Of a DNA stretch of 47,676 nucleotides, positions 11,304 through 46,277 are shown one piece after another. The notes beneath the pieces were generated by a model. That model was given only the letters and a program-made list of their open reading frames with translations, was not told where the DNA came from and did no database searches. A program made the position numbers and the translations under genes. Where the stretch lies: contig CAYUYV010000015.1 of assembly GCA_964449455.1 (NCBI GenBank), positions 3,344-51,019 of the forward strand, written 5' to 3'. Source of the stretch: an uncultured Alphaproteobacteria bacterium. Lineage in GTDB: Bacteria > Pseudomonadota > Alphaproteobacteria > JAJFIK01. Within the stretch, counting starts at the first letter, position 1. The number at the start of each line of letters is the position of its first letter.

Positions 11304-11355
11304 CGGCGATGCCTCTGCGCCCGCCGGATGGCGGGCCGCAAGAGGGAGCCTCACC

Positions 11356-15505: not shown

Positions 15506-15955
15506 GTGAAACTGAGCACACGCGGTCGATACGCCGTCATGGCGATGGCAGATCTGGCACGGACCGGCAGCGACCGGCCCATTGCCCTGGCGGATATCGC
15601 TGAGCGGCAGGGGATCTCCCTGTCCTATCTGGAACAGCTTTTCGCCAAGCTGCGACGGCATGGATTGGTTGTGAGCGTGCGCGGGCCCGGTGGGGGTTAC
15701 CGTCTGGCCTATAGCGCAGAGGAAACGCGGGTGTCGGATATCATTCTGGCCGTTGATGAGCCCATTAAGGCCACGCGATGTGATCCGGCGACGGCGACAG
15801 GCTGTACAGGAACCGGTGTGCGCTGCCTCACCCATGATTTGTGGGAGGAGCTCACCCGCCAGATCCATATTTTCCTCAGCTCCGTGTCCCTGGGTGATGT
15901 GGTTAATCGCAAGGTTCTTGGGCGCAGCGGCGATACGGGCCTCGCGGCCGAATAA
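15506..15955 (+). CDS. Rrf2 family transcriptional regulator (IscR/SufR-like, Fe-S cluster ligating)
   Basis: MKLSTRGRYAVMAM... wHTH N-terminus. Three-Cys patch RCDPATATGCTGTGVRC. GTG start. First gene of the suf operon. Confidence 0.85.
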   Translation: MKLSTRGRYAVMAMADLARTGSDRPIALADIAERQGISLSYLEQLFAKLRRHGLVVSVRGPGGGYRLAYSAEETRVSDIILAVDEPIKATRCDPATATGCTGTGVRCLTHDLWEELTRQIHIFLSSVSLGDVVNRKVLGRSGDTGLAAE

Positions 15956-15976
15956 GGGTGGTGGAGTCAGGACGGC

Positions 15977-17173: not shown

Positions 17174-17184
17174 GGAGGATGTCC

Positions 17185-18639: not shown

Positions 18640-18705
18640 CGCCTCATTGGCTGGCCTCTGGCCATTGCTCCGCTCAAGGACAGTTCTAAGGAAAGTGATC
18701 CGGTT

Positions 18706-19455: not shown

Positions 19456-19500
19456 GGCCCTCGCCAGCCCAGTCGTCCCTATAAGGATCAGGAGCGCGCC

Positions 19501-26550: not shown

Positions 26551-27351
26551 CTACGGTTTGCGGAACCGCGTTCCCGGCGCCGGGGGGTGTTCGGGCGGTC
26601 CGGCGAAGCATTGGGCCATGGCCATCCAGCGGGTGGCGGTTTCTCCGGTCACCGTGAGCGCGGTGTCGGCGATGTTGCGCACCTGGGTCACCACCTGGCA
26701 GAATTCGGTGGCGCTGCCTTCGACCTTATTGTCCGTCTGCGGCGTGTTCCACTCCCAGATTTCTCCGGACGGCGCGGTCAGGCGCACATAGGGGATGTCT
26801 GCCGGGATCTCCAGACCGCGGACCATGAAGGTCCAGCCAAAGGTGTTCAGGCCCAGATGAGCGATGTTCCGGATACGGTCCGCATCGACCCGCTCAACGC
26901 CCAGCGTGTCATAGACTTCCTGACCATGGGCCCAGGTCTCCATCAGTCGGGCGGTGATACTCGAGCGCACGCTCATATCGGGTCCGGCCCATTTAACACG
27001 GGCCTTGGGGTCCGCCTCGGCAAAGCGCGCCGCCATGGTGGGATAATAATCCGCCCAGGCATCGAACAGGGCCCGCCCCGAGAGGCCGCCCAACCACCCG
27101 GTCTCGAAGCTGCGCAGCGTGCCCCCGCCTTCCAGTTCCTTTGCCACATCGGCATAAAAGGACTGGAAGGCACCGCTGTCCGTTAGGGATGTATCGGCCG
27201 CCCAGTTCCACATATGAAGGTGGCCCACCACGTCATTGATGGTCCAACCCTTGAATTGAGTTGCCTGCTGAAAATCCGTATCGGAAAGCGGTTCAAGCAG
27301 CGCGTGCAGGGCGTCGCTTTCTTCTTTGAAGTCGATAGCCTGCTGCATCAT
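26551..27351 (-). CDS. DinB/MDMPI_N-fold putative metal-binding protein (TIGR03084-like)
   Basis: 266 aa. W.INDVVGHLHMW and RLMETWAHGQEV motifs recalled from the mycothiol-maleylpyruvate-isomerase N-terminal superfamily. The start overlaps the upstream stop (ATGA). Confidence 0.65.
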   Translation of the reverse strand: MMQQAIDFKEESDALHALLEPLSDTDFQQATQFKGWTINDVVGHLHMWNWAADTSLTDSGAFQSFYADVAKELEGGGTLRSFETGWLGGLSGRALFDAWADYYPTMAARFAEADPKARVKWAGPDMSVRSSITARLMETWAHGQEVYDTLGVERVDADRIRNIAHLGLNTFGWTFMVRGLEIPADIPYVRLTAPSGEIWEWNTPQTDNKVEGSATEFCQVVTQVRNIADTALTVTGETATRWMAMAQCFAGPPEHPPAPGTRFRKP

Positions 27352-28502
27352 TGCGTGTCCTCCACCTTGAGATAGCCGTGGAGCCGGTCATAGGCGGACA
27401 GGAAATCCTCCATGAACTCGACCATCACGGTCCGGACGGACTGCTGGCTGTTCATCAGGCCCACGCCCTGGCCGACCCAATAGGTGGCAAGCTCCTTCGC
27501 CCCGTCATGGCCGCCATCGGCGAGCTTGTCGATCTTGGAGAGGGCCGGCTCACTGATCATGGACTGGAGTGGCATGGGTAGGGGCTCGGGGCTGCCCTGG
27601 GCCTCCCAAGCATCCGTCCACGGAGAGCGGAGCTGGCGGGAGAATTTGCCCGTGCGGCTCTTGGAGCGCACCGTATCCGATGAACGCGCCGTGACCATTT
27701 TGTCCTTCACCGCAGGCAGGGTTTCGGCTTCGGCCGTTGTCAGCCACATGGACGCGGTCCAGGCGCCGGCAGCACCCATGGCCATGCAAGCGGCCATCTG
27801 CCGGCCCGTGGCGATGCCACCGGCGGCCAGAATGGGCGTGTCGCCATAGGGCTGAATGCCAATATGCACTTCCGGGATCAGCACCATGGTCGAAACGCTG
27901 CCGCAATGGCCGCCCCCTTCCGTACCCGACACAATCAGCACATCGACGCCGGCCTGGACCTGTTTGATGGCGTGCTCCTTGGCACCGACCAGGGCACCGG
28001 TCTTCACGCCCCGCTCACGGGCCATGTCCAGCATGATTTGGGGGGGCACACCGAGGGCATTCACGATGAATTTGATGGGATAGGAAAAGGCCACATCGAG
28101 CAGGCGCTTGGCCCCGCTCTCCTGGATGTTTTGGCCGATCCCACCGAATTGCTGGCGCACATCGTCAGTGAGGTCACTGGAGTCGATGCCATGGCTCTCC
28201 AGGATCTGGGAGGCGAATTTCTTGTGTTCTTCCGGGATCATGGCGATGATCTGCTCCGCCGACGGAGTAGACCCGGAAATGGCGGATTTGTTGGGGATCA
28301 GCAGGTCCACACCGTAAGGCCGGCCATCGATATTCTCATCGATCCATTTGAGTTCGGTATCAAGGGCTTCAGGGGAAATGCCGCCAGCGCCCAGGACGCC
28401 GAGCCCGCCGGCCTTGGAGACTTCCGTTACCACATTTCGGCAATGGCTGAAGGCGACGAGGGGAAAATCGATCCCGAACATGTCGCAGATGGGTGAGTGC
28501 AT
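27348..28502 (-). CDS. Nitronate monooxygenase family FMN oxidoreductase (NMO/2-nitropropane dioxygenase-like)
   Basis: 384 aa. TIM-barrel flavoenzyme motifs (GGLGVLGAG, SGTEGGGH, PILAAGGIATGRQ). GGAGA SD 6 nt upstream of the ATG. Confidence 0.85.
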   Translation of the reverse strand: MHSPICDMFGIDFPLVAFSHCRNVVTEVSKAGGLGVLGAGGISPEALDTELKWIDENIDGRPYGVDLLIPNKSAISGSTPSAEQIIAMIPEEHKKFASQILESHGIDSSDLTDDVRQQFGGIGQNIQESGAKRLLDVAFSYPIKFIVNALGVPPQIMLDMARERGVKTGALVGAKEHAIKQVQAGVDVLIVSGTEGGGHCGSVSTMVLIPEVHIGIQPYGDTPILAAGGIATGRQMAACMAMGAAGAWTASMWLTTAEAETLPAVKDKMVTARSSDTVRSKSRTGKFSRQLRSPWTDAWEAQGSPEPLPMPLQSMISEPALSKIDKLADGGHDGAKELATYWVGQGVGLMNSQQSVRTVMVEFMEDFLSAYDRLHGYLKVEDTQ

Positions 28503-28684: not shown

Positions 28685-30679
28685 TCACGATGCGGCGACC
28701 TCAATATCGAACAGCATGTCATGCGCGGCGACCTGGGCGCCGGTTTCGGCATGGACAAGGGTCACGGTGCCATCGGCTTCGGCCAGGATCTCATGCTGCA
28801 TCTTCATGGCTTCGAGGATCGCAAGGCGCTCACCCGTGGTCACCGACTGGCCGGCCCGGACGAAGATCTCGATAATCCGGCCATGCATGGGGGCCGTGAC
28901 CTGGCCACCGCCCGTGCTATCGTCCGCATCCCGACCGCTGGTGTTGGCGTTGCGGAACAGGAAGCTGGCGGCCCCCTCCTGGAGGTGAAGCTCTGAGCGT
29001 GATGCGGCCAGAAACACGACATTGCGGCGCCGTCCTTCGACGACGAGGCGTGCAAAGGGCGCTTCCAGGTGCTCCAGGGTGACCGCCAAACTCTGTCCGT
29101 GCCCGTCAACTCGATATGTGCCTTGGCCCTGGGGCGTGATGGTCACGTCCACAGCGCTGTCGCCCACTTGCGCCACATAGGGAAAGATGAGCGTGCCGGC
29201 ACTCACCCAATCCATCAGTTCCGGGGACCGGACAAGGCTCTTGCCGGCGGCGGCTTCCCGGCGCAATGCGTAGTCAATGACGCCAGCCATGGCGGCGTGG
29301 GACATGTCCGGAACCGGACCGGCGAGGTCTTGTGCGCCGAACTCTTCGGCAATGAAGGCCGTTGTGGCACCGCCTTGGGCAAAGGTCTCCCGTTCCAGGC
29401 AATCGACCAGAAATGCCCGATTGGTCCGCAGACCGATGAGACCCAAATCCTTCAGGGCGCTGGCGAGGCGCCGCCGGGCCACGTCCCGCGTAGGGCCATG
29501 GGCCATGACCTTGGCAATCATGGGATCGTAAAAGGGAGACACGGACTGGCCGGAAACGATTCCGGTGTCGATGCGCACGCCCTCTCCCTGCGGTGCTTGC
29601 CACAGGGTGATCGTTCCGGTAGCGGGCAGGAAATCCTGAGACGGATCTTCTGCATAGAGGCGGGCTTCGATGGCATGGCCATCAAGGCGGATGTCGTCCT
29701 GGGTCAGGCCCAGCGGTTTGCCCTCGGCAACCTGGATCTGAAGGGCGACGAGGTCGAGCCCAGTCACGAGTTCCGTGACTGGATGTTCCACCTGAAGCCG
29801 CGTATTCATTTCGAGGAAATAGAAGGCGCCATCCTGACCGAGAAGAAATTCGACCGTACCGGCTCCCTCATAGGCGATGGCTCGGGCAGCGGTCACGGCA
29901 GCCTCACCCATCCGGGCGCGCAGCTCCTTGGTGAGGACGGGGCAGGGTGCTTCCTCGATCACCTTTTGATAGCGTCTTTGTACGGAGCAGTCCCGTTCGC
30001 CCATATGGATTGCCGAGCCATGGGCATCGCCGAAGACTTGGATCTCAACATGGCGTGGCCGGATAATGGCCCGTTCCAGGATCAATTCACCGGAGCCGAA
30101 GGCATTCTCGGCCTCGGAGCGGGCGAGTGCCAGGGCATCGGACAGTCCTTCCATCCCATGGACAAGTCGCATGCCCCGCCCACCACCGCCGGCCGCCGCT
30201 TTGACCATCAAGGGAAAGCCGATGGATCGGGCCGCATCAATCAGGGTCGCGTCGCTTTGATCCTCGCCCTCATAGCCCGGCACACAAGGCACGCCCGCGC
30301 CAATCATGCGCCGTTTGGCATCCGCCTTGTTGCCCATGGCCGCGATGGCCTCTGGAGAGGGGCCGATAAAGGTCAGCCCAGCCTCGGCACAGGCCTTGGC
30401 GAAACCGGCATTCTCCGACAAAAAGCCATAGCCCGGATGAACGGCGTCCGCACCGAGCTGGCGCGCTGCGTCGATAATCCGCTCCGGGTCCAGATAGCTT
30501 TCGCCAGCGGGTGCTGGTCCGATCAGGGCGGCGTCATCGGCCAGGGCCACATGGGGCGCATCTGCATCGGCTTGCGAATAGACTGCAAGGGCCCGTCGGC
30601 CCAGAGCCTTCACGGTCCGTATGACCCGAACTGCGATTTCGCCGCGATTGGCGATCAGGATGGCGTTAAGCTCAGCCAT
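28685..30679 (-). CDS. Biotin carboxylase + biotin carboxyl carrier fusion (acyl-CoA carboxylase alpha subunit, MccA/AtuF/PccA-like)
   Basis: 664 aa. ILIANRGEIA, GGGGRGMR and ATP-grasp core motifs. C-terminal biotinyl domain with EAMKM. Confidence 0.9.
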   Translation of the reverse strand: MAELNAILIANRGEIAVRVIRTVKALGRRALAVYSQADADAPHVALADDAALIGPAPAGESYLDPERIIDAARQLGADAVHPGYGFLSENAGFAKACAEAGLTFIGPSPEAIAAMGNKADAKRRMIGAGVPCVPGYEGEDQSDATLIDAARSIGFPLMVKAAAGGGGRGMRLVHGMEGLSDALALARSEAENAFGSGELILERAIIRPRHVEIQVFGDAHGSAIHMGERDCSVQRRYQKVIEEAPCPVLTKELRARMGEAAVTAARAIAYEGAGTVEFLLGQDGAFYFLEMNTRLQVEHPVTELVTGLDLVALQIQVAEGKPLGLTQDDIRLDGHAIEARLYAEDPSQDFLPATGTITLWQAPQGEGVRIDTGIVSGQSVSPFYDPMIAKVMAHGPTRDVARRRLASALKDLGLIGLRTNRAFLVDCLERETFAQGGATTAFIAEEFGAQDLAGPVPDMSHAAMAGVIDYALRREAAAGKSLVRSPELMDWVSAGTLIFPYVAQVGDSAVDVTITPQGQGTYRVDGHGQSLAVTLEHLEAPFARLVVEGRRRNVVFLAASRSELHLQEGAASFLFRNANTSGRDADDSTGGGQVTAPMHGRIIEIFVRAGQSVTTGERLAILEAMKMQHEILAEADGTVTLVHAETGAQVAAHDMLFDIEVAAS

Positions 30680-30691
30680 TGGTCCGAAGCC

Positions 30692-32485
30692 CTAAAGTTG
30701 GCCGGCAAGATGTGCCGGAACGGGTATGGGATAATCGAGCAGAATCTGGGCGTAGCCTTTTCCTTGCGGGTCATTGCGCAGGCTGGCCATGCCGCCGCCG
30801 CCGAGCACATTGTGGATGAGGAGGTTCAGGGCCGGAGGGCCGGGCAGATAGAAGCGTTCAACACGGGTTGGCTCGAAATGAGCGAAGGCGCCGGCCACGA
30901 CTTCCTCCGTCAGGGCCGCCCAGATATAGGGCATATAGTCCGCATGCCGTGCAATAATACCGACATTGGCATGATTGCCTTTGTCTCCGCTGCGAGCCCA
31001 GGCAAGCCGGATGAGCGGCACTGTGGCGGGAGCGCCTGCGAAATCGGGCGGGTCCGGGAGGGCGGCGCGTTCGATTTCCGCAGCATCAAACGGCTTGCCG
31101 ACGCCTTTGGGAAGCGTGGTGGTCTCGCCGTCCATATCGAGATGAATGGCAACGGCCTCCTTCGGCACAAGGAAGGAAAACAGCCGGACCACGGGCGAGG
31201 GGCTGGGACGGCCGCCTTGGAATCCGGACAGGCCCGGCGGCGTGGCAAGGCCGAGGCCCGTGATCTCCCGCAGCAGAATGCCAACGCCCTTTTGGTCGTC
31301 ATGCTTGGCAGCGATCTTCACAGCCACTTCCCGGGCCCCGTCAATGCGCCGGCCAGAGCCATACTGACTTTCCGCACCGATCACTTCGACACTGATCTCC
31401 TCAAAGTCACCGATATTCATGGTGCGCAATGTGGCTCGGGCCCGCGCGATGGCCGCATCGGCAAAGGCTCGGGCCTTTTGGTCCGCGTCAATACCGTAAA
31501 AGGTCAACACGGTGCCGCCGCGGAATCCGTCAGCAAGGGTCGCTGAAACCTTATAACTGTCCGTAGCCGGCGTGCCCTTTGCGCCTTCAACAAGGACGCG
31601 GTCGGGCGCCGCCTGGGTAAGGCGGACAGCGGAGAAATCGCAGACCACGTCAGGGACCAAATAGGCCTGGGGATCACCAATTTCATAGAGCATCTGTTCG
31701 CCGACAGTGCCCACGGAGACAAGCCCGCCGGTTTCCTCCGGCTTGGTCAGGGCGAACCGCCCAGAGCCTTCAATCTCGGCAATGGGATAGCCAATGTCCT
31801 GGATCGTGTGCGCGACCTGTTGCCAGTCCGTGAAATTGCCGCCCGTGGCCTGGGGGCCGCATTCGAGCAGATGGCCCGCCAGGGTGCCGGCGGCGAGCCG
31901 GTCCCAATCATCCGCCTGCCAACCAAATTCATGGATGCAGGCGCCGAGGGTTACGGCGCTGTCAACACAGCGCCCTGTGATGACAATGTCCGCTCCCTGT
32001 TCAAGGGCTTGCGCGATGGGAAAGGCACCCAGATAGGCATTGATGCTGGCGACTCGTCCGGCATCGGGGAAGATCTCTCCAGAGAACATTTCAGGGATCT
32101 GGGCCTCGGCGAATCCTTGGGCCTCGCCCAGGAGGTCATCCCCGGTAATCACGGCGACCTTGAGGTCGAGGCCTGCGGCATGGACCAGGGCTCTGGCGGC
32201 CTCGCCACAGGCGACCGGATTGACCCCGCCGGCATTGGAGATCACCCGCACGCCCTGTCGCGCTATCTCAGTGAGATTATCCTTGAGCACCACACGGACA
32301 AAATCCGTGGCATAGCCCTGGGCGGGGTCCTTCGCCCGGGCGCGGGCCATGATCGACATGGTGATTTCGGCAAGATAGTCGAAGACGAGATAGTCAAGAT
32401 CGCCCTTGGCCAGGAGCTGGGGCGTCGCCATGGCGGACTCGCCCCAATAGCCGCTTGCACCGCCGATTCGAACGACTTTCTTCAT
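30692..32485 (-). CDS. AtuA family protein (DUF1446, acyclic terpene utilisation-like) with C-terminal DUF4387-like region
   Basis: MKKVVRIGGASGYWGES...DYLVFDYLAEITMSI is a typical DUF1446 N-terminus. Start trimmed to ATG 32485. Ends 12 bp before the carboxylase gene. Confidence 0.8.
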   Translation of the reverse strand: MKKVVRIGGASGYWGESAMATPQLLAKGDLDYLVFDYLAEITMSIMARARAKDPAQGYATDFVRVVLKDNLTEIARQGVRVISNAGGVNPVACGEAARALVHAAGLDLKVAVITGDDLLGEAQGFAEAQIPEMFSGEIFPDAGRVASINAYLGAFPIAQALEQGADIVITGRCVDSAVTLGACIHEFGWQADDWDRLAAGTLAGHLLECGPQATGGNFTDWQQVAHTIQDIGYPIAEIEGSGRFALTKPEETGGLVSVGTVGEQMLYEIGDPQAYLVPDVVCDFSAVRLTQAAPDRVLVEGAKGTPATDSYKVSATLADGFRGGTVLTFYGIDADQKARAFADAAIARARATLRTMNIGDFEEISVEVIGAESQYGSGRRIDGAREVAVKIAAKHDDQKGVGILLREITGLGLATPPGLSGFQGGRPSPSPVVRLFSFLVPKEAVAIHLDMDGETTTLPKGVGKPFDAAEIERAALPDPPDFAGAPATVPLIRLAWARSGDKGNHANVGIIARHADYMPYIWAALTEEVVAGAFAHFEPTRVERFYLPGPPALNLLIHNVLGGGGMASLRNDPQGKGYAQILLDYPIPVPAHLAGQL

Positions 32486-32501
32486 CGGACCCTCCCCATT
32501 G

Positions 32502-32523
32502 AAACCGAACGGGCATTCTGTTT
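32502..32523. promoter_or_regulatory. Imperfect palindrome AAACCGAA-N6-TTCTGTTT, candidate TetR operator
   Basis: 7 of 8 positions are symmetric. Lies 17 bp upstream of the AtuA-like start, in the AtuA/TetR divergent region. Confidence 0.3.
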
Positions 32524-32645
32524 TATAAAGGAAGGTCCTTGCGTCGGCAACCACCGGAAGGACAGGCGCTGGAACCGGGCCGTCGCAATTGGGGATGCTT
32601 CTAAAAGAGCCTGCGAGTTCGCGACCATGGGGGCGCACGTCATTG

Positions 32646-33296
32646 ATGGATGATGCGGGACAAAGTGAGGTCGAGGATCGCCGGGGGCGCAAGGCTGAGA
32701 TGGCCCGGCGCACCATCTGTGACGCCGTCATCACTTGCCTTGATCGCTATGGCTATGCGGAGACCACCATCAGCCGCGTCACCGAAACGGCCGGCGTTTC
32801 TCGGGGCGCCCTGACCCATCATTTTCCGACCAAGGAAGACCTGATGGTCGCCGCAACCGATCGCCTGCTCGGTCGCACCGCCCGCGCCCGTTTGCCCAGC
32901 GCAAGAGAGGGTCATCCGTCCCGTGAAGATGAGGGGGGTGATCTTGAGGCTGATTTTCTTTGGCTCTGGGATCGGCTGGCCAATACGAAGGAGGGGCGCG
33001 TCCTTCTGGAAATCTTGGTCGCGGCCCGGACCGACCGGGCCTTGAGGGCCAAGCTTGGGTCAAGGCTTGGCTATTGGAACGGCGCCATGAATGATCACTT
33101 CGCCGGGATCTATCACTTGGCCGAGGATGCGCCGCCGGAGATTGACTTTGCCGATCTGTGGACCCTGGCCCGTGTGTTCCTGCGTGGCCTGAGCACCCAG
33201 GGTCTGTTCGGCGCTGAGCCGGAGAGCCAACGCCGGCTGGTGCGCCTTTTCGCCCGCCTTATGGCCCCCCATTTGCGCCGGTCGCATAAATCATAG
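32646..33296 (+). CDS. TetR/AcrR family transcriptional regulator
   Basis: ...YAETTISRVTETAGVSRGALTHHFPTKEDL helix-turn-helix signature. Divergent from the AtuA-like gene. Start is either ATG 32646 or 32700. Confidence 0.85.
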   Translation: MDDAGQSEVEDRRGRKAEMARRTICDAVITCLDRYGYAETTISRVTETAGVSRGALTHHFPTKEDLMVAATDRLLGRTARARLPSAREGHPSREDEGGDLEADFLWLWDRLANTKEGRVLLEILVAARTDRALRAKLGSRLGYWNGAMNDHFAGIYHLAEDAPPEIDFADLWTLARVFLRGLSTQGLFGAEPESQRRLVRLFARLMAPHLRRSHKS

Positions 33297-33654
33297 GCAG
33301 CACCGCCGCTGCCAGTCAGCACGACATGCTTTGCCCCAAATAGCGCCGTCAATCATGGCGCCTTCAGTCGCCAAAAGCGGACCTTTATCGATTTGATCTA
33401 ATGCGCCCTGACCCGTATCAAAGCCCGTGATCGGTTAGCGCGGCTAAGGTTCCGACCGCATCGTGATGGGATCGTGATATTCAATGTCCCCCGAATGCCG
33501 CATTTCGACATCATCTGACAGCCAGAAGCGGGCCAGACTTGCCGCGGTGCAAGGCGAAGGGATATGACGGATTGGGCAGATGGTCAGGCAAGAGGGGCGA
33601 TGGCCTGTGCCCGATACCCAGCGCTTGCACTCCATGGCGGATCGGTGTCCCAGG

Positions 33655-33701
33655 CGATCTGGGGCGCTCTGCGACCGGGAGCGCTCTACGATCTGGGGCG
33701 C
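33655..33701. repeat. 13-bp direct repeat CGATCTGGGGCGC x2 (period 34 bp)
   Basis: Copies at 33655-33667 and 33689-33701, in the roughly 520-bp non-coding gap upstream of the MMPL gene. A second repeat, ATCGTGAT x2 with period 11, lies at 33460-33478. Confidence 0.9.
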
Positions 33702-33814
33702 ACCGCGATTGGCCGCGTCTCGGGGCCCGGGGCACTTTAAAATCGCTTTTGTAGTCACTCTCGCGTAAGTCGGGCCGGTTTGGATTGCGCAACCGGTATT
33801 TGGGGAGAAACGGC

Positions 33815-36172
33815 GTGGGCTCAATCGGTTTTGGCCTGGAATATCTCGGCCTCGTCGCGGTGGCGCGGCCGCGCATCACGCTTGTGCTGATCCTGGTGGT
33901 TCTCACGGTTGCGGTGATCGGCGCTGCCAAGACCCGTTTTGCGGACGATATGGCCACCATCTTCCAGTCCGCCGATGCGGCCTATCAAACCTATGACCAG
34001 TTCAAGGGCCAGTTCGTGGACGGCTCTGACTCCGCCATCCTGGTCGTGGATGGCGATTTTACCCGCGCGGACCACTGGGCGGCGCTGCAGGCCCTGGCCC
34101 AATCGGTCGAATCCCTGCCATCGGTTGCCGATGTGGTCTCGATCCTTTCGCTGCGCCGCCTGGAGTCCTCCGCGGGCGATCCGGCACCGGATAATTTTGA
34201 AGATGATCTGTTCGAGGATCCCGAGTTTGAAGCCGCGTCTGTGAAGCCGGCTGCCTTTGAAGAGGGCGCCGATGCCGGCCAGAACGGCATCGAAGGCGCC
34301 ATGGAACTGGGGGCTGCAGCGCTTGCGGTTCATCCGCTGAACGAAGGGGGACGGCTGCTCACTCCGGATTTTAAAAGTGCGACCATGATCCTTGCCCTGC
34401 CGGAGGACGGGGACCGGCTGGAGAATGCCCAGGCCCTTGCAGCGGATCTGGGCCCGCTTCTGGTTCAACTGCCGGACGGCATGACGGCGATGCTGAGTGG
34501 CTTGCCCATTGTCCGTGCCGAGATCGTGCGTCACCTCGTGGAAGAGCATCCGTTTATTCTGGGGGCGGGCCTCGGCATAGGGTTTCTCCTGGGCGTGGTG
34601 CTGCTGGGCATTCTTGTCGATGCCGTCATCGTTGCGGTGATGCCTATTCTCAGTATCGTGATGGTTTATGGCGGCTTTGGCTGGCTCGGCATTCCCATGA
34701 CGGTCATGCTGAACGACCTGCCCCTTTTGGTCCTGGCCCTGGCCTTCGCGGCGAATATGCATCTTGTCTATGCGGCCCGAAGGGACCTTTTCGCCGCTGA
34801 TTACGACTTCAAGGCTATTGCCAAGACCATCCGGTTCATCGGGCCGGCTTGCAGCCTCGCCAGCCTGACAACGATCGTTGCCTTTTTGTCCCTCGCGTTT
34901 TCCGGATCCAGAGCCATTGTCGAATTCGGCCTGATCGGCGCGGCGTCCGTGTTTGGTGTGCTCATCTCGGCCATGGTGTTTTTCCCGGTGACCGTGTGGG
35001 TCGCGCTCCATCTGGGCTGGCGGCCCCGGCCGGCATTGCAGGGTAAGGGACGTGTCGCCCAAGCCATTGAGGCCGCCGCTGTGGATGCCACCCGCCTTTT
35101 CTATGCCTATCGCTGGCCGATCGTGGTCTTTGTGGTGGTCGCGACGATTGGGGCCGGTATCGCTTATAGCCGCGTTACTCCGAGCTATACCTATCTTGAG
35201 GAAGTTCCGTCTGGATCTGAGACTTACAAGCTTATCGAGCGCCTGGAAGGGCAGCTGGGCGGGGCGCACACGCTTCACCTGCCGCTGCCCATTCCCATCA
35301 CTCCGGACGAATTTGACCTGGCGCCGCTTCTGAAGCTGCGCGACGTCCACAAAACCCTTGAAACCGAGCTTGGCCGGCCCGTCTATTCCGCCTGGACCAT
35401 CATATCCTGGCTGACAGATACCGGCCGCACTGTTTCGGCGCCCCGAATGGAAGCGGTTTTCGAGCAGGCGCCCAGCGGATTGCGGGGCCTGTTGTTGTCG
35501 AAGGACGGCAACACCCTGGCGCTCATGGTGCGGGTCTCGGAAACGGACGAAACGGATCTTGACAGCCTCGCCGCCCAAATCGAGACCGTGGCCGGTGAGG
35601 TGCTGGGCGCGGATCTGACAGGCCAGGCCACGGGCATCGTGGTGCTGGCCTCACGGGTCAGCGATGAGATTCTCTACAGGCTTGGCATATCCCTCGTGAT
35701 TGCGGCCATGGCAACGTCGCTGCTTGTCGGGTTTGGCTTCCGGTCGTTTGAGGTGGCACTGTTGACCCTGGTGCCGAATATTCTGCCTGTGCTAGCGGTG
35801 GGTGCGCTTCTTTACCTGCTCGATTGGCCGTTGCAAATCGCAAGCGCGCTCGCCATGACGATTGCCTTGGGCATCGCGGTTGATGACACTGTGCACATGA
35901 TGAATGGCTTTTGGGCCCAACGCTGTGCGGGGCGATCGCCGCGGGCCTGTATTGCCCGGACGATGCGGGAAGTTGGGCCAGTGCTGGTCTTGACCAGCTT
36001 CGTCCTGATGCTGGGCCTGTCGCCGGCCCTTTTGAGCTGGTCCCCCGGGATCGCCACTTTCGCCCTGTTCGCAATCGCCACGATCGGTATTGCTCTGGTC
36101 ACCTGTCTTGTGGCCCTGCCCGCCATCCTGGCCCTGCGGTTCCATCGGGGAACATCCGCGTGGCTCGACTGA
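33815..36172 (+). CDS. MMPL/RND-superfamily (HpnN-like) lipid exporter
   Basis: About 785 aa with two blocks of about 6 TM helices, each preceded by a large soluble loop. GGAGA SD 6 nt upstream of GTG 33815. The ORF track begins at TTG 33785. Confidence 0.8.
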   Translation: MGSIGFGLEYLGLVAVARPRITLVLILVVLTVAVIGAAKTRFADDMATIFQSADAAYQTYDQFKGQFVDGSDSAILVVDGDFTRADHWAALQALAQSVESLPSVADVVSILSLRRLESSAGDPAPDNFEDDLFEDPEFEAASVKPAAFEEGADAGQNGIEGAMELGAAALAVHPLNEGGRLLTPDFKSATMILALPEDGDRLENAQALAADLGPLLVQLPDGMTAMLSGLPIVRAEIVRHLVEEHPFILGAGLGIGFLLGVVLLGILVDAVIVAVMPILSIVMVYGGFGWLGIPMTVMLNDLPLLVLALAFAANMHLVYAARRDLFAADYDFKAIAKTIRFIGPACSLASLTTIVAFLSLAFSGSRAIVEFGLIGAASVFGVLISAMVFFPVTVWVALHLGWRPRPALQGKGRVAQAIEAAAVDATRLFYAYRWPIVVFVVVATIGAGIAYSRVTPSYTYLEEVPSGSETYKLIERLEGQLGGAHTLHLPLPIPITPDEFDLAPLLKLRDVHKTLETELGRPVYSAWTIISWLTDTGRTVSAPRMEAVFEQAPSGLRGLLLSKDGNTLALMVRVSETDETDLDSLAAQIETVAGEVLGADLTGQATGIVVLASRVSDEILYRLGISLVIAAMATSLLVGFGFRSFEVALLTLVPNILPVLAVGALLYLLDWPLQIASALAMTIALGIAVDDTVHMMNGFWAQRCAGRSPRACIARTMREVGPVLVLTSFVLMLGLSPALLSWSPGIATFALFAIATIGIALVTCLVALPAILALRFHRGTSAWLD

Positions 36173-36321
36173 CGGGCCACGCGCCTGGAATTCGGCGAGG
36201 CTCACCCGCTTAAGGAGTCTGAGCGTGGCCCCGCCTCATCTATGCTGTAGTGAATCTGCGCGACGCCGAGGGGCGGCGGGCTGCTCGTAAAGACCTTGTG
36301 AGACTGAGAGAACGGAAGTTT

Positions 36322-37518
36322 ATGGCCCAGAACATGACACTTGCATCGCCGGTTGCCCTGCGCACTGCCGATCGTGCCGACACCGCCGCCGACGCGGTCA
36401 ACGCAGCTCAGGCGATGCCTTCGGCCCAGCCCGCGGCCGATGTCCGCATCACCGGTCTCGGCACCGCCGTGCCGCCCCATGTGCTTGAGCAGGACGTCGT
36501 CGAAGTGATCGCCGGCCGGATCCTCGGCCCCCGCTTTCCGGATTTCCAGCGCCTCGCCCGCACCTTCACCTCCTCCGGTGTGAAGACCCGGTATTCCGTG
36601 TGCCCCCTGGAGTGGTTCCAGTCATCCCAGGACTGGCCCGAGCGGACGGCCCGTTATCTGGAAGGCGCAACAGCCCTGTTCGTGGAGTCCGCCAACAAGG
36701 CCCTGGCGGAAGCCGGACTTCAGGCCGCGGATGTGGACGCCGTGGTGACCGTGTCCTCAACGGGCATTGCCACCCCAACCCTGGAGGCGCGAGCCTTCGG
36801 CATCATGGGCTTTCGCCACGATATTCTCAGGGTTCCAGTGTTTGGGCTTGGCTGTGCAGGCGGGGTGAGCGGCCTTGCCATCGCCCAGCGTCTGGCGGCT
36901 GCGACGCCGGATTCCACGGTGCTCCTTGTCTGTGTGGAAACCTGCACATTGGCCTTCCGGGACGACCAGCTTCGCAAGGCTGACATCATCGCAACCGTGC
37001 TGTTCGGTGATGGAGCGGCGGCGGCTGTTCTGTCGAACCGCTCATCCCATCCGCAAGCGATGAATGGTGAGGGCTCCACCGCTCGGGGGCCACGCCTTGG
37101 TGCCGGTGTCCAGCATATCTGGACTGACAGTCTCAACATCATGGGCTGGGACGTGGACCCGACTGGCTTTGGCGTGATTTTCGATCGCTCCATTCCGCCC
37201 TTTGTGACGTCCGAATTCGCTGGGGCCGTGGACTTCTGCCTGGAGCGTATGGAGCTGACCCGGGACGACATCACCCGCTATGTCTGCCATCCGGGCGGCA
37301 TCAAGGTGCTTGAATCCATTGAGGAGACGATGGGTCTTGAAAGCGGATCCCTGGATCACGAGCGCGATGTCATTCGCGATTTCGGTAATATGTCCGCGCC
37401 CACCGTGTTGTTCGTGTTGGACCGCTTCCGGCAGACCGGTCCGACGGGGCGGGTGCTGCTGACGGGTCTTGGTCCAGGGTTCACCGCATCCATGATCCCC
37501 CTGTCATTTGACGTCTGA
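36322..37518 (+). CDS. Type III polyketide synthase (chalcone synthase superfamily)
   Basis: Catalytic triad contexts are visible: GLGCAGG (Cys), YVCHPGG (His) and FGNMSAPT (Asn). FGDGAAA loop. Start trimmed to ATG 36322. Confidence 0.9.
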   Translation: MAQNMTLASPVALRTADRADTAADAVNAAQAMPSAQPAADVRITGLGTAVPPHVLEQDVVEVIAGRILGPRFPDFQRLARTFTSSGVKTRYSVCPLEWFQSSQDWPERTARYLEGATALFVESANKALAEAGLQAADVDAVVTVSSTGIATPTLEARAFGIMGFRHDILRVPVFGLGCAGGVSGLAIAQRLAAATPDSTVLLVCVETCTLAFRDDQLRKADIIATVLFGDGAAAAVLSNRSSHPQAMNGEGSTARGPRLGAGVQHIWTDSLNIMGWDVDPTGFGVIFDRSIPPFVTSEFAGAVDFCLERMELTRDDITRYVCHPGGIKVLESIEETMGLESGSLDHERDVIRDFGNMSAPTVLFVLDRFRQTGPTGRVLLTGLGPGFTASMIPLSFDV

Positions 37519-37559
37519 CCATTTGGGGCGACATCTGATTATTTCTGGAGGGCAGCATC

Positions 37560-38081
37560 ATGCTGGAAAGCGTGTTTCAGGGGCCGGCTGGATGGGGGTT
37601 TGTCCTTTTGTCCGTCGTGACGGCCCAGCGGCTCGTTGAGCTGCGCATTGCTAAACACAACACCCAGCGTCTGCTTGACCGGGGTGCGCGGGAGATCGGC
37701 GCGGATCATTATCCGCTGATGGTGGGGTTCCATGCCACCTGGTTGATCCTGATGTGGATTTTCGGCTGGAACCAGGGCCTGGTGGCGTTCTGGGTGGGTG
37801 TCTACATCCTGCTCCAGGCTTTCCGCATCTGGATCCTGGCGAGTCTCGGGCCCCGCTGGACGACGCGGATCATTATCATTGATGAGCCCCTTGTGGCGCG
37901 TGGCCCCTATAAGTTCATCAGGCACCCCAATTACTGGCTGGTGGTTGCTGAGATTGCCACGGTACCGCTCGCCCTGGGTCTGACGTGGCTCGCAGTCGCC
38001 GTGTCCGTTCTCCATGCCGGCGTGCTCTTCATCCGCATCCGTGCCGAGAATGCCGGTCTGAAGCAGATTGCCCATTTGTGA
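37560..38081 (+). CDS. Isoprenylcysteine carboxyl methyltransferase (ICMT) family membrane methyltransferase
   Basis: 173 aa, multi-TM. RGPYKFIRHPNYW motif. GGAGGG SD 7 nt upstream. Confidence 0.85.
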   Translation: MLESVFQGPAGWGFVLLSVVTAQRLVELRIAKHNTQRLLDRGAREIGADHYPLMVGFHATWLILMWIFGWNQGLVAFWVGVYILLQAFRIWILASLGPRWTTRIIIIDEPLVARGPYKFIRHPNYWLVVAEIATVPLALGLTWLAVAVSVLHAGVLFIRIRAENAGLKQIAHL

Positions 38082-39008
38082 TCATTCGGCATCTTCCCTT
38101 GGCGCGGCCGGTGTTCCGCTCCGGGCCAAGGCAATCCCTCCAAGGATGAAGATGAGCGCTGGCAATGCCTCTAACCCCGGATTTTCTCCCAAGAGAAAAA
38201 TGCCAAGGCCCGCCGCCCAAAGCGGGATCAGATAATTAATCTGTGCGGTGAAGGTGGGCCCCGCGGTATCGATCAGGCGCAGCAGCGCCAAGGTGGCAAA
38301 TGCGCTGCAAAAGATGCCAAGGGTTACGGCGGCAGCCAGGGATGCACTGCTTGGGCGCAACGCTCCGGGATCTTCCAGGATGAAAGCCAGTGGCACGACA
38401 ATGAGGCATGCCGCGATGTGAATTGCGGTTGCCGCCGTGAGGGCCGTTATGGGGGGGCGGTGCCGGGTCAAGACCGCGTTAAGGGCATAAAAACAGGCGC
38501 CGGACAGGATGGCCAGTTGGGCCACAATGCCCGCGCTCTTACCAAGCCCCTCGGAGCCTTGGGCGAACAGGTCCGGTGCGAAAAGGATCACCAGCCCCGC
38601 AAAGCCCAGGACAAAGCCGCCAAGACGCCGGAGCGTGATTATCTCTCCAGGGACAAATAACGCGGCAAGACCCATGGTGGTCAGCGGCATAACCGCCATC
38701 AGGATACCGGCGAGGCTGGAGGGCACCGTTTGCTGGCCCCAACTGATCAGGATGAAGGGCGCCACATTGCCGGTGATTCCAAGAACGGTCAGCATGGCCC
38801 AGACCCGCAGCTGTCTTAGCTTTGGCAGGGCCTGTCCGAGCGCCAGGGAGGCGGCAAGCAGGACCGCTGTGGCCGTCACGATACGGACGGCGACGGTGGA
38901 TATGGGCGTGATGGTCTCGACGGCAATCGAGATCAGCATGAATGCGGAGCCGTAGAGTATGACCAGGATGGCAAGCAGGCTCCAGGGGCCCTGAAAAATC
39001 GCGCTCAC
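38082..39008 (-). CDS. DMT superfamily (EamA-like) transporter
   Basis: 308 aa, 10 predicted TM helices in two EamA-like halves. The GTG start overlaps the upstream TGA by 4 nt (GTGA). Confidence 0.85.
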   Translation of the reverse strand: MSAIFQGPWSLLAILVILYGSAFMLISIAVETITPISTVAVRIVTATAVLLAASLALGQALPKLRQLRVWAMLTVLGITGNVAPFILISWGQQTVPSSLAGILMAVMPLTTMGLAALFVPGEIITLRRLGGFVLGFAGLVILFAPDLFAQGSEGLGKSAGIVAQLAILSGACFYALNAVLTRHRPPITALTAATAIHIAACLIVVPLAFILEDPGALRPSSASLAAAVTLGIFCSAFATLALLRLIDTAGPTFTAQINYLIPLWAAGLGIFLLGENPGLEALPALIFILGGIALARSGTPAAPREDAE

Positions 39009-40153
39009 ATCAGCTCCTTCAGGGCGTCAAACAGCATATCGATATCATAGTCATCGTTATAGAGATGGGGCGTGATGCGCAGCGAGTCTGCCCGTGCACT
39101 GACATAGATGTTGCGTTGTTTCAGTTCGGCAAGCAGGCCTTCGGGCATACCGCTTGGAAAACGCACACCGATGAAATGGGGGGCTCGTTCGCCTTCAGGC
39201 GGTGTCGCGAGGCCGAGCGCGCGGGCATGGTCTGCGATATGGCGTGTGAGTTGTCCGAGGGTGGCGGCGATGCGCGGAATTTCCCATGCGGTGATCTGTT
39301 CGAGCGCCGCGCAGGCCATCGGCATTAAATGGAGCTGGGGCCGCGCACCCATGTCAAATCGGCGGGCGCCCAGGTCCCAGTCTTCCACATAGTCCGTAAG
39401 GCGCGCAAAATCCTCCGCATTCCGACGGCCAATCCAGGTCTGTTCCAAAGGAATCCCGTTCTGGTGTCGCGGCGCCACATAAAGAAAACCGAGACTGTAG
39501 GGCCCGAGCAGCCATTTGTAACAGGGGGAAACGATAAAATCCGCCCCCACCGTACGCACATCAATGGGCAGAGCGCCGAGGGATTGGGACAGATCCAGCA
39601 CAAGAGCCGCTCCGACCGCACGGCATCGGGCCGAAATGCCTTCAAGGTCAAACAATGCCCCATCGGTCCAGTGGCAATGGGGCAGGGCCACAACAGCGGT
39701 CGTCTCGTTGATTTCGGACCAAACAGCCTCGCTCCAGGTGGCCCATTGGGAGTCCGGTCGTGCCACGGTGATAATCCGTGCACCCTTGTTTTGCGCCAGT
39801 TGCCGCCAGGCAAAGACATTTGATGGGAACTGATCTTCAACGATGACAATGGACTGGCCTTGCTCGATCGCAACATTGGCCGCCGCCGTCGCGATGCCGT
39901 AGCTTGCGGATGGGACGATGGCGATGTCATCTGCCTTGGCGCCAATGAGCGGGGCGAAGAGGTCCCGAGCCCGGTCCGCGCCGGAGAAGAAATCTCGGGG
40001 CTCAATCTGCCAGGGGGTGGATTTCCTCCGTACACCCTCTTCGCCGGCTTGCGTGACTGTGCGCAAGGACGGGGACATATAGGCACAATTCAGATAGATG
40101 ATCTCCGGCGGCAGATCGAACAACGGGCGTTGGCAGGCAAGCGGGGCAGTCAT
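39005..40153 (-). CDS. Class V aminotransferase-fold PLP enzyme (cysteine desulfurase/isopenicillin-N-epimerase-like)
   Basis: 382 aa. IYLNCAYMSP N-terminus and SPCYKWLLGPY PLP-lysine context. Start trimmed to ATG 40153. The ORF track extends 128 codons further, through a tandem repeat. Confidence 0.85.
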   Translation of the reverse strand: MTAPLACQRPLFDLPPEIIYLNCAYMSPSLRTVTQAGEEGVRRKSTPWQIEPRDFFSGADRARDLFAPLIGAKADDIAIVPSASYGIATAAANVAIEQGQSIVIVEDQFPSNVFAWRQLAQNKGARIITVARPDSQWATWSEAVWSEINETTAVVALPHCHWTDGALFDLEGISARCRAVGAALVLDLSQSLGALPIDVRTVGADFIVSPCYKWLLGPYSLGFLYVAPRHQNGIPLEQTWIGRRNAEDFARLTDYVEDWDLGARRFDMGARPQLHLMPMACAALEQITAWEIPRIAATLGQLTRHIADHARALGLATPPEGERAPHFIGVRFPSGMPEGLLAELKQRNIYVSARADSLRITPHLYNDDYDIDMLFDALKELM

Positions 40154-40168
40154 CAGGCATATCCGATC

Positions 40169-40244
40169 AAAAAGACTGGGTCCGACCAAAAAGACTGGGT
40201 CTGGCCAAAAAGACTGGGTCTGGCCAAAAAGAGTGAGTCCGATC
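40169..40244. repeat. 4 x 19-bp tandem repeat AAAAAGACTGGGTCYGRCC
   Basis: Copies at 40169-40187, 40188-40206, 40207-40225 and 40226-40244. The two middle copies are identical and the outer ones diverge, with decayed partial copies flanking. Lies 16-91 bp upstream of the aminotransferase start. Confidence 0.95.
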
Positions 40245-40501
40245 AAAAGATCGGGGTGCCGCACGGCATGGCGGTCCGCAGAGGCAATGTGCACCGCTTC
40301 TTCACGCCGCTGACGGCCTTCGAATGCAGTTCCAGACCTCAAGAATAGGTCATGGACCCGGCCACGCAAACGGGTCCCGATTTGATGCGCTTTTGCCAAC
40401 AGGCCCATCAGGGTTAGCGGCTCCTTAAGGCGATCTCCCACACGCTGATGCAAATATTTCTGGTGGGTTTCGATGCGGCGCAGCTTGACGGCGCAGGGGG
40501 A

Positions 40502-40547
40502 CTGCACGTATATCATCCGTGGGCCACGCTCCCCCAACGGAGTGCAG
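40502..40547 (+). ncRNA. Nested hairpin in the serC 5' leader (candidate alphaproteobacterial serC leader motif)
   Basis: The outer stem pairs CTGCAC (40502-07) with GTGCAG (40542-47). The inner stem pairs TCCGTGGG (40516-23) with CCCaACGGA (40533-41). GGAAGG SD follows, then ATG 40570. Confidence 0.4.
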
Positions 40548-40569
40548 CTATTCTGGAAGGAATAGACTT

Positions 40570-41754
40570 ATGGAAAGTCAGACGACCCCGGCAAAGCCGG
40601 TAATGCGTCCTGCGCGGGCGCAGTTCTCCTCCGGTCCTTGCGCCAAGCGCCCCGGTTGGACCCCTCAAGACCTCGCCGACGCGGCACTCGGCCGCTCCCA
40701 CCGCTCAAAAATTGGTAAGGCGAAGCTCGCCGAGGCGATCACGCTCACCCGCGAAATACTCCAGGTTCCCGATGACTACCGGATTGGCATTGTGCCAGCG
40801 TCGGACACGGGGGCTGTGGAAATGGCCATGTGGTCCCTGCTCGGGGCACGCGGCGTTGATGTGGTTGCGTGGGAATCATTCGGAGCTGGATGGGTTACCG
40901 ATGCGGTCAAACAGCTGAAGCTTGACGACTGCCGCGTCATTGAAGCCGACTACGGACAAATCCCTGATCTTGCCGGCATCGACACGGATCGCGATGTGGT
41001 CTTCACCTGGAACGGCACGACGTCCGGTGTGCGCGTTCCGAATGCGCACTGGATCAAGGCGGATCGGGCGGGGTTGACCATTTGCGATGCCACCTCGGCG
41101 GCTTTCGCCCAGGATCTCGACTGGCCAAAGCTCGATGTGGTCACCTATTCCTGGCAGAAAGTGCTCGGCGGAGAGGCGGCCCACGGGGTGCTGATCCTCT
41201 CACCGCGGGCCGTGGAGCGCTTGGAGACCTACAAGCCCGACTGGCCGCTGCCGAAAATCTTCCGTCTGACCAAGGGCGGCAAGCTGATCGAAGGTATTTT
41301 CAAGGGTGAAACCATCAACACGCCTTCGCTTCTGTGTGTTGAGGATTATCTCGATGCCCTGCGCTGGTCGCAGAGCGTTGGCGGCCTTGCAGGATTGCGG
41401 GCGCGCGCCGATGGCAATCTCGCCGTCATGGAACAGTTTGTGGGGACCCGGGATTGGATTGATTTCCTGGCGGAGGATCCGGCGACCCGCTCCAATACCT
41501 CTGTCTGTCTCAAGATTGTCGATCCTGTATTCCTTGACCTTGATGCGGATGGCCGCAAGGCGCTCGTGAAGCGCCTCAGCGAGCTCCTGGAGGCCGAGGA
41601 GGTCGCGTTCGACATCGAAGGCTATCGCGATGCTCCGGCGGGCCTGCGCATCTGGTGCGGGGCAACGGTGGAGGCGTCTGATCTTGAGGCGCTTTTACCT
41701 TGGCTCGACTGGGCCTATGCCACGGCGCGTGAAGAACAGCGCGCCGCCGCCTGA
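40570..41754 (+). CDS. serC: Phosphoserine aminotransferase (long alphaproteobacterial/actinobacterial type)
   Basis: [17 protein letters not shown]-terminus and [14 protein letters not shown]-Lys context. Start trimmed to ATG 40570. Confidence 0.9.
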
Positions 41755-45714: not shown

Positions 45715-46236
45715 ATGGGTCTGTTGCGCTCAGCGATCGACAAGATCCTGATCGGGGCGATTGCCTTGGTCGTGGGCCTCATCATTCAGGCAAGCTGGAA
45801 TGACCGCCAGGACGAGATGGAGCGCCGACGCGCCGTCCATGCCTATAAAATTGATGTAGGTACGGACAATATTCGCGCTTTCAAGTCACACATTACACAG
45901 ACGATTTCTCTAATGGCCAAGGCCCGTGTGGGGACGGACGAGGAGCGCAGCGCTTTGCTGGACACGGTGAGCGCGACCCTTGATGAGGCCAGGCTCAATC
46001 TGTCGCTCATTGAAGCCTTGCGCGATCCGAGCGAGGGTGCGGCGGAGGAAGACACCGCCCTGCCTGCCTATCGGGCGGCCTTGTCCCGTTTCGTGGCCGA
46101 CTTGCAAGCCCTTGATATAGAGGACTTATCCCAGCGCCGGGTCATGGACGGGAAGCTTGAAAACTTAAGGACAATCGGTGTCGGTGCCATGAAGGCGGCG
46201 CTTCGGGATATGGGCGAGACGGCCGCTAATCTGTGA
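45715..46236 (+). CDS. Hypothetical membrane-anchored all-helical protein
   Basis: The ORF is open from 45625 (TTG/GTG); the first ATG is at 45715. One TM helix (ILIGAIALVVGLIIQ) is followed by a charged helical region. No recognised domain. Local GC dips to about 42% in places. Confidence 0.45.
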   Translation: MGLLRSAIDKILIGAIALVVGLIIQASWNDRQDEMERRRAVHAYKIDVGTDNIRAFKSHITQTISLMAKARVGTDEERSALLDTVSATLDEARLNLSLIEALRDPSEGAAEEDTALPAYRAALSRFVADLQALDIEDLSQRRVMDGKLENLRTIGVGAMKAALRDMGETAANL

Positions 46237-46277
46237 GCGTGGCTGCAATGGGATCGAGCTTGGGAGGGATTATCAGT

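Follow-up and report, generated by a model that had tools for sequence, protein, structure and literature searches.

The window analysed here is a 47,676-nucleotide stretch of contig CAYUYV010000015.1 from an uncultured alphaproteobacterium, and this study concerns a cassette within it that encodes a resistance-nodulation-division (RND) superfamily transporter, a type III polyketide synthase (PKS) and an integral-membrane methyltransferase of the ICMT family (Table 1). We consider it probable (roughly 0.6) that this trio is one functional unit, which makes a membrane lipid and moves the product out of the inner membrane. The first-pass annotation of this DNA had described three same-strand genes separated by gaps of 149 and 41 bp, had assigned them to the three families and had listed the motifs GLGCAGG, CHPGG and GNMSAP for the PKS and RHPNYW for the methyltransferase. 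The coordinates of the open reading frames (ORFs) reproduce the spacing exactly, all four motifs are present in the translations, and the Pfam matches of all three proteins exceed their gathering scores. A Shine-Dalgarno sequence, GGAGA, lies 8 nt upstream of the GTG start of the RND gene (33815), and GGAAG lies upstream of the ATG start of the PKS gene (36322).

The PKS matches Chal_sti_synt_N with 77.8 bits and Chal_sti_synt_C with 49.6 bits (cut-offs 27), and no other domain was found in its 398 aa. The contexts of its catalytic triad, GLGCAGG (Cys), CHPGG (His) and GNMSAP (Asn), are invariant across 22 aligned homologues and align with the catalytic residues of Pks11 from Mycobacterium tuberculosis (Mtb), which is also the nearest solved structure (phmmer, 180.7 bits; next match, 124). 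In the AlphaFold (AF2) model, the core has a predicted local distance difference test (pLDDT) score mostly above 85, and the thiolase-like fold superposes on solved type III PKSs, with Foldseek template-modelling scores (TM-scores) of 0.90-0.91 for Pks11, at 31% identity, and 0.84 for CylI, the next nearest. Pks11 forms alkylpyrones from long-chain acyl-CoA and CylI is alkylresorcinol-forming; both take long-chain acyl substrates. The automatic name given to homologues of this PKS by JGI is "alkylresorcinol/alkylpyrone synthase". DpgA, THN synthase and other non-lipid PKSs were considered and rejected, since the score against the DpgA model NF042429 (165 bits) stays far below its cut-off of 425 and Pks11 is clearly the best match in both structure and sequence.

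An Ala/Pro-rich N-terminal extension of about 45 aa had previously been noted in the PKS. The extension and its richness in Ala (14 of 41 residues) were borne out, while its length is closer to 40 aa (up to VRITGLG) and it contains only 3 Pro. Its start, comprising the Shine-Dalgarno sequence and the ATG at 36322, is kept in the two nearest relatives, L081 and L082, and the tail is therefore real in these two and in the window. Its sequence is not conserved and is predicted to be disordered (pLDDT 37-50). Most PKS homologues (350-367 aa) are without the tail, and the other RND-linked PKSs (361-368 aa) largely lack it as well. The tail is a lineage quirk that lies outside the system; a role as a targeting or docking element was rejected because it is unconserved, disordered and missing from most RND-linked relatives (P0004 and P0007, for instance). 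Separately, a Gly/Ser-rich insertion, SNRSSHPQAMNGEGSTARGPRLG, at ~37033-37107 (PKS residues ~238-262) is common only to the window and L081; it has lowered model confidence and forms a surface loop between conserved blocks.

The methyltransferase matches the ICMT family (PF04140) with 78.8 bits (cut-off 24) and PEMT with 30.2 bits, and besides the RHPNYW motif it has hydrophobic segments at residues 74-97 and 126-162. Against the NCBIfam equivalog for protein-S-isoprenylcysteine methyltransferase, it scores 20.6 where the cut-off is 160, and it is therefore not a true prenylcysteine methyltransferase. A single-sequence search of the PDB with this protein gave no useful match.

For the RND protein, the Pfam matches to MMPL (36.4 bits; cut-off 20.5), Sterol-sensing (41.4 bits) and Patched (38.2 bits) are all above gathering scores, the sterol-sensing and Patched sterol-sensing domain (SSD) models being the strongest. 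The best named NCBIfam subfamily is HAE3 (TIGR00921; 143.5 bits over residues 189-784), which remains below its cut-off of 351.9, as do HpnN (TIGR03480; 46.4 bits against 751.85) and MmpL (HAE2, TIGR00833; 46.2 bits against 874.7). No hpn or shc genes were found in the window. A single-sequence PDB search returned only weak AcrB-type transmembrane (TM) matches. A family profile of 35 members matched MmpL4/5 with ~120 bits, HpnN with 105, MmpL3 with 88, NPC1-type proteins with ~70 and AcrB/MexB-type proteins with ~50 bits. The AF2 model (pLDDT 87.8; predicted TM-score, pTM, 0.87) contains 12 TM helices, large periplasmic domains between TM1 and TM2 and between TM7 and TM8, and a two-fold internal repeat, in agreement with hydropathy. 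Foldseek matched it to many RND structures with a probability of 1.00, and TM-scores were 0.70-0.76 for MmpL4/5, 0.68-0.75 for MmpL3, 0.65-0.69 for NPC1/NPC1L1, 0.62-0.65 for HpnN and 0.51-0.59 for AcrB. Based on these profile scores and superpositions, the protein resembles the lipid-handling wing of the superfamily and appears to stand apart from the AcrB-type drug pumps. The earlier label "MMPL/HpnN-like" thus survives as a description of profile and predicted fold and fails as a statement of membership; by sequence, this name, like HAE3/MMPL-like, denotes resemblance. An acidic insert in the first periplasmic domain, PDNFEDDLFEDPEFEAASVKPAAFEEGADAGQNG (34193-34303; RND residues 127-163), has a pLDDT below 50 and was modelled as unstructured.

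The residues of the proton relay are distributed unevenly. The TM4 Asp of the wider RND family (GFSDSMH) is replaced across the clade of RNDs encoded upstream of a PKS, the sequence being AFAANMH in the window and A[ST]S[ML]H elsewhere, and it is present in most relatives of the downstream clade described below and in most relatives without a PKS link. The TM10 motif VDDTVH, usually with its double Asp, is kept in the upstream clade, and so is the TM4 His (residues ~312-318 for the TM4 motif and 688-694 for the TM10 motif in the window). The upstream clade may therefore use a one-sided proton relay, with the TM4 Asp gone and the TM10 Asp-Asp in place. Loss of an acidic TM4 residue throughout a clade, together with top Pfam matches to the sterol-sensing and Patched SSD models, could also be taken to mean that the RND is degenerate and non-transporting, serving as a lipid sensor or scaffold in the manner of eukaryotic SSD proteins and regulating or organising the PKS and ICMT at the membrane. 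However, TM10 retains its Asp (usually Asp-Asp), Thr and His, and the His of TM4 is conserved as well; the model shows, with high confidence, a complete 12-TM protein that has both periplasmic domains; and the clade, with 41-76% identity over the full length, is evidently under purifying selection as judged from these alignments. We hence regard a sensor or scaffold as very improbable and continue to treat the RND as a candidate lipid transporter.

The conservation of the cassette was assessed with a PKS profile scan using one genome per species, which returned 548 relatives. The best 80 were retained; all are alphaproteobacterial and their loci span Devosia, roseobacters and other Rhodobacterales, Rhizobiaceae, Bradyrhizobium, Microvirga, Caulobacteraceae and Kiloniellales. 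The ICMT gene lies directly 3' of the PKS gene on the same strand in every one of these 80 loci. An RND gene was found upstream of the PKS in 2 of them, L001 (49% identity to the RND of the window) and L076 (41%). The nearest PKS relatives are all arranged as RND-PKS-ICMT, namely L081 (89% identity), L082 (77%) and L083/L084 (69%), and the neighbours of the L083 cassette are entirely different from those in the window. Reverse lookup from RND proteins at 44-46% identity led to P0133 (from a scaffold of Tara Oceans), P0131 and P0128, each of which belongs to such a trio. A metagenome scan with a profile of the RND subfamily yielded only 6 loci, which agree with this picture and contribute few new cases; of these, L094, L096 and L097 each continue with a PKS. 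By contrast, RND relatives at or below 31% identity that were looked up (P0136, P0143, P0162, L095 and L098) have no PKS nearby. Altogether, all 12 distinct loci that encode an RND with at least 41% identity have its gene immediately upstream of a PKS gene, and they represent at least 5 unrelated flanking contexts. Conservation of the adjacency in relatives was a point on which the first-pass annotation had made its proposal depend, and adjacency is kept throughout this subfamily. The PKS-ICMT pair is the conserved core, and the RND is an accessory that is tightly and specifically linked to it.

A second arrangement was found in 14 of the 80 loci (L013, L014, L019, L025-L027, L035, L040-L042, L065, L066, L070 and L075), where an RND gene directly follows ICMT, its start overlapping or abutting the ICMT stop; these RNDs are 25-31% identical to that of the window. 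Cultured carriers include Roseobacter sp. N2S (L035) and Yoonia sp. 208BN28-4 (L042). Neighbour joining placed the upstream RNDs in one monophyletic clade and the downstream RNDs in another next to it, and a large clade without a PKS link lies apart from both. In the PKS tree, loci with the upstream arrangement make up a single clade, with L076 in addition, and those with the downstream arrangement are scattered patchily over marine lineages. All 14 downstream loci also encode, after the RND gene and overlapping its stop, a protein of ~165 aa with an N-terminal signal peptide (L014:11766-12284), whose match to DUF1579 (24.3 bits) is just under the cut-off. This protein could be a periplasmic lipid-carrier partner of the downstream RND; the window has no equivalent gene.

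The slot after ICMT is occupied by a same-strand gene for a major facilitator superfamily (MFS) transporter (MFS_1) in another 13 of the 80 loci (L052, L055, L063, L067-L069, L071, L073, L074 and L077-L080). Species with this gene include the Bradyrhizobium isolate STM 3809, a Bradyrhizobium metagenome-assembled genome (MAG), Mycoplana dimorpha and a Rhizobium sp., and the cultured strains of this arrangement are Bradyrhizobium STM 3809 (L071), Mycoplana dimorpha DSM 7138 (L074) and Bradyrhizobium sp. STM 3843 (L046), the contig of the last ending within ICMT. The presence of an MFS gene in this position in 13 species points to repeated selection for a transporter. Moreover, three transporter solutions (an upstream RND, a downstream RND with a signal-peptide protein, and an MFS protein) have become fixed beside the core, which suggests that transport of the product is important.

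MFS proteins typically export small molecules, and their occurrence in the same position in other clades is compatible with a different role for the RND. It could serve efflux or self-protection by pumping a bioactive polyketide, such as a signal or an antibiotic, into the medium, and take no part in the trafficking of a structural envelope lipid. Cyanobacterial type III PKS clusters likewise contain RND and MFS genes, which were read by the authors as evidence of export and of an extracellular role (PMC8086630). Nevertheless, we consider an efflux pump unlikely. Genes for a membrane-fusion protein or an outer-membrane factor were not found in the cassette, which leaves such a compound without an obvious way through the outer membrane; in fold and profile, the closest counterparts of the RND are lipid transporters whose cargo goes to the periplasm or outer membrane; and a membrane-embedded ICMT implies a membrane-resident substrate.

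One of the trio loci bears on the nature of the product. Directly upstream of the trio in L092, and on the same strand, lies a gene for an FAD_binding_3 monooxygenase of 389 aa (L092:4549-5718, equivalent to L093:2513-3679), which recalls hydroxylases of the SrsC type, by which alkylresorcinols are converted to quinones. Together with the fact that orthologues of Pks11, the nearest structure, have been implicated in polyketide quinone formation (PMC5916927), this would fit a pathway that makes a polyketide quinone, which would act in respiration as an alternative carrier of electrons, as is the case in M. smegmatis and Streptomyces, with the RND being secondary. Searched with tblastn, the L092 protein had no match in the window or in the other upstream-RND loci, and no such hydroxylase accompanies any of them. 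Furthermore, an inner-membrane quinone would need no dedicated exporter, yet the RND subfamily is strictly linked to the PKS. A quinone pathway is accordingly a decidedly improbable account of the trio, and an exported methylated phenolic lipid remains the product that we favor.

The non-coding stretches of the cassette were inspected for regulatory elements, and no terminator, riboswitch or structured RNA was found in the 149-bp spacer or in the 518-bp region upstream of the RND gene. Specifically, the 149-bp spacer contains no terminator-like site and has no Rfam match, and its predicted RNA fold is no more stable than that of shuffled sequences (z = 0.91). Only its end, with the Shine-Dalgarno sequence and the ATG, is kept in L081 and L082, and the corresponding spacer is 70-112 bp long in other relatives. 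The 518-bp region has no Rfam match at E<=1, no conserved ORF and no nucleotide conservation, even against the nearest relative L081. A hidden MmpS-like small gene upstream of the RND gene was also considered and rejected: the ORFs on the minus strand of this region either lack conservation or mirror RND coding sequence, and the only homologues they have stem from the shadow of the RND N-terminus. Long antisense ORFs in the cassette itself (33821-35578 and 37539-38075) have no independent support and are shadows typical of GC-rich sequence. From this layout, co-transcription of the trio appears plausible.

Taken together, the model that we favor builds on gene presence, family membership, fold similarity and conserved linkage. 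The type III PKS would condense a long-chain fatty acyl thioester with malonyl-CoA units and cyclise the chain to an alkylpyrone and/or alkylresorcinol, a step suggested by its family and nearest structures. The membrane-embedded ICMT-family enzyme would then O-methylate the head group with S-adenosylmethionine (SAM), in line with the precedent of BpsB and SrsB and with the strict gene pairing. Finally, the RND, a putative 12-TM proton-driven lipid transporter of the MmpL/HpnN/NPC1 type without adjacent adaptor or outer-membrane-channel genes, would take the methylated phenolic lipid out of the inner membrane to the periplasmic side and probably on to the outer membrane, as strict synteny and fold would suggest.

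Several points weigh against this model. The RND lies below the curated cut-offs of every named subfamily, and with the TM4 Asp lost in the upstream clade, normal proton coupling is not assured. The cassette contains no starter-supplying gene, neither an acyl-CoA ligase nor an acyl carrier protein (ACP), and the 149-bp spacer could harbor an internal promoter. Whether a pyrone or a resorcinol is formed is not predictable from sequence, and the Trp rule derived from ArsB failed for DquA (PMC9827899). The organism is known only from metagenome-assembled contigs. Furthermore, 51 of the 80 PKS-ICMT loci have no adjacent transporter, from which it follows that the pair works without one in many species; 16 of these 51 loci have short flanks, and the transporter frequency in the 80 loci is thus a lower bound. 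The proposed association of an exporter with PKS-ICMT consequently holds within the RND subfamily of the window and does not extend to such loci in general. A broader version of the model, to which we give somewhat less than even odds, would be that Alphaproteobacteria evolved an HAE3/MMPL-like RND sublineage solely for bringing methylated type III PKS phenolic lipids to the outer membrane from the inner one. Its genes would occur in two orders, either upstream of the PKS gene or, accompanied by a gene for a periplasmic partner, downstream of ICMT, and the clade of the window would use a one-sided proton relay.

The cassette is embedded in ordinary chromosome, as the window also contains suf genes, an aminoacyl-tRNA synthetase gene, anmK, serC/serA and purA. 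The PurA protein is 97% identical to that of the MAG that yielded L081 and ~74% identical to PurA of Parvibaculum/Pyruvatibacter; these values and the serC leader RNA described below mark the host as an uncultured alphaproteobacterium. No signal of horizontal transfer was seen for the cassette, whose GC content (0.60-0.66) is in line with that of the surroundings. Upstream lies an atu-like catabolic cluster on the opposite strand, with a divergent TetR gene between it and the cassette (Table 1).

Table 1. Features of the cassette and of the region 5' of it (positions refer to the window).
Feature	Position	Strand	Remarks
RND-superfamily transporter	33815-36172	+	785 aa; GTG start; Pfam MMPL/Sterol-sensing/Patched
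RND-PKS intergenic spacer	36173-36321	+	149 bp
Type III PKS	36322-37518	+	398 aa; ATG start; Pfam Chal_sti_synt_N + C
PKS-ICMT gap	37519-37559		41 bp
ICMT-family integral-membrane methyltransferase	37560-38081	+	173 aa; Pfam ICMT
Non-coding region 5' of RND gene, presumed cassette promoter region	33297-33814	.	518 bp
Nitronate-monooxygenase-like gene	27348-28502	-	atu-like catabolic cluster
Biotin carboxylase with biotinyl domain	28685-30679	-	atu-like cluster
AtuA	30692-32734	-	atu-like cluster; listed ORF 680 aa
TetR gene	32589-33296	+	divergent to atu-like cluster

The TetR protein probably regulates the divergent atu genes in the manner of AtuR; since its gene faces that cluster, it is more likely to act there, and a role as regulator of the cassette was rejected because it occurs only in the window and L082. 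A hairpin at 33296-33313 directly follows the TetR stop, and its position suggests that the TetR gene ends there. Gene calls for AtuA in relatives (597-618 aa) are shorter than the listed ORF, which also runs into the TetR ORF; the start of one or both has therefore been over-called. Proximity to this cluster allows for yet another explanation, in which the RND belongs to the atu-like genes and TetR as an AmeD-like terpene efflux pump and its adjacency to the PKS is accidental. AtuA and the biotin carboxylase are indeed encoded immediately upstream in the window, L081 and L082, and AmeD itself, likewise an RND of the HAE3 type, is encoded within an island for monoterpene metabolism (PMC6394551). 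However, the atu genes are on the opposite strand, TetR is not shared beyond L082, and the AmeABC partners carried by AmeD-type cassettes are absent here. Such a link was rejected as the trio recurs without atu or TetR in L083, L085, L087, L092, L001 and L076, which makes a terpene pump scarcely credible and leaves the RND with the PKS-ICMT pair, as the lipid-transport model has it.

On the 3' side, the ICMT gene is followed at 38082-40537 by a convergent minus-strand pair consisting of an EamA-family transporter gene (308 aa) and a class-V aminotransferase-like gene. The pair is common to the window and L081 and is not kept in other relatives; the aminotransferase ORF of 510 aa is probably over-extended, since the call in L081 is 382 aa and the Pfam match starts from residue 186. 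Further downstream, a serC leader RNA of the alphaproteobacterial type was identified at 40517-40570 on the plus strand, in front of the serC-serA pair (RF00517; 48.9 bits, gathering score 35). The listed GTG start of serC at 40519 overlaps this leader and the NCBIfam match begins at residue 23-30, and the real start is therefore probably ~20-30 codons downstream. Elsewhere in the window, the minus-strand ORFs 15233-16537 and 17656-19653 have no Pfam match and overlap the plus-strand ORFs 15977-17173, 17035-18639 and 18706-19455, which sit just upstream of sufD/sufS; the former are probably antisense shadows of suf-operon genes. Three other ORFs, at 398-1318 (-), 10377-11645 (-) and 46233-47528 (+), have no Pfam match.

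It is known that phenolic lipids from type III PKSs alter the bacterial envelope, with examples in the cyst coats of Azotobacter, the beta-lactam tolerance of Streptomyces and the respiration of mycobacterial biofilms. To our knowledge, no route has been described by which these lipids exit the inner membrane in diderm cells, and the bps, srs, ars and dqu loci described so far are without a transporter. The literature that we searched contains no description of an MmpL/HpnN-like RND sublineage attached to a PKS-ICMT module, which upholds the earlier view that the exporter lies outside the described loci. The PKS-ICMT module is already known, and the gene arrangements suggest that this pair of phenolic-lipid genes has, in the bacterium studied here, probably acquired a dedicated exporter. 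An RND subfamily seen only beside PKS-ICMT provides a concrete candidate for the exit of phenolic lipids from the diderm inner membrane, and the alternative RND and MFS genes in the same slot of other clades add to the case for an exporter. If the broader version of the model is true, phenolic lipids would join hopanoids (HpnN) and sterols (BstA) as a third bacterial lipid class served by a dedicated RND route. In addition, the widespread locus of roseobacters and Devosia, which genome-mining papers give as an unknown "T3PKS" cluster (PMC10584327), corresponds to the conserved PKS-ICMT lipid module and is not an orphan secondary-metabolite gene.

Set beside published descriptions, the core of the cassette is most directly comparable to BpsA/BpsB of Bacillus and DquA/DquB of Sporomusaceae. 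In these systems, the PKS forms long-chain alkylpyrones/alkylresorcinols and BpsB O-methylates them (PMC9827899). The pair and its order on one strand, as well as the catalytic triad of the PKS, are the same; in contrast, the known loci have no transporter, and the host here is alphaproteobacterial. A PKS paired with an ICMT or O-methyltransferase also occurs in the srs operon and in the Pks10 operon of M. smegmatis (PMC5916927). SrsABC of Streptomyces griseus and Pks10 share with the cassette the combination of a type III PKS and an O-methyltransferase acting on a long-chain phenolic lipid, their products being alkylresorcinol methyl ethers and polyketide quinones, and Pks11 is related to these systems. 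However, their operons carry an SrsC-type hydroxylase/oxidoreductase, for which a counterpart exists only in L092 and not in the window, and they include no RND. The cyanobacterial clusters mentioned above are the nearest published case in the literature searched and are alike in gene presence, but they are hybrid type I/III or cytochrome-b5-associated clusters and not a minimal PKS-ICMT module.

With regard to the transporter, the mycobacterial proteins MmpL3 and MmpL4/5 give the best profile and structure matches and follow the same principle of an RND for a PKS-derived lipid. The RND of the window differs from them in having no MmpL C-terminal domain, MmpS partners or AcpM context, and in its diderm host. 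HpnN is encoded beside the biosynthesis genes of its hopanoid cargo and is described as working without adaptor or outer-membrane partners (PMC6394551). Identity to HpnN is ~15%, no hopanoid genes lie near the RND of the window, and the latter lacks the TM4 Asp; both are nevertheless stand-alone RNDs of ~800 aa beside membrane-lipid biosynthesis genes, without adaptor or channel genes. The bacterial sterol transporter BstA of Methylococcus is likewise encoded beside sterol biosynthesis genes (PMC10942540). While the Bst system serves another lipid class and the window has no gene for a periplasmic partner, BstA/BstB/BstC and the cassette have in common an MMPL-family RND that is co-located with lipid biosynthesis genes, and the 14 loci with a downstream RND and a small signal-peptide protein resemble the combination of the Bst RND with its periplasmic carriers in gene logic, not by shown homology.

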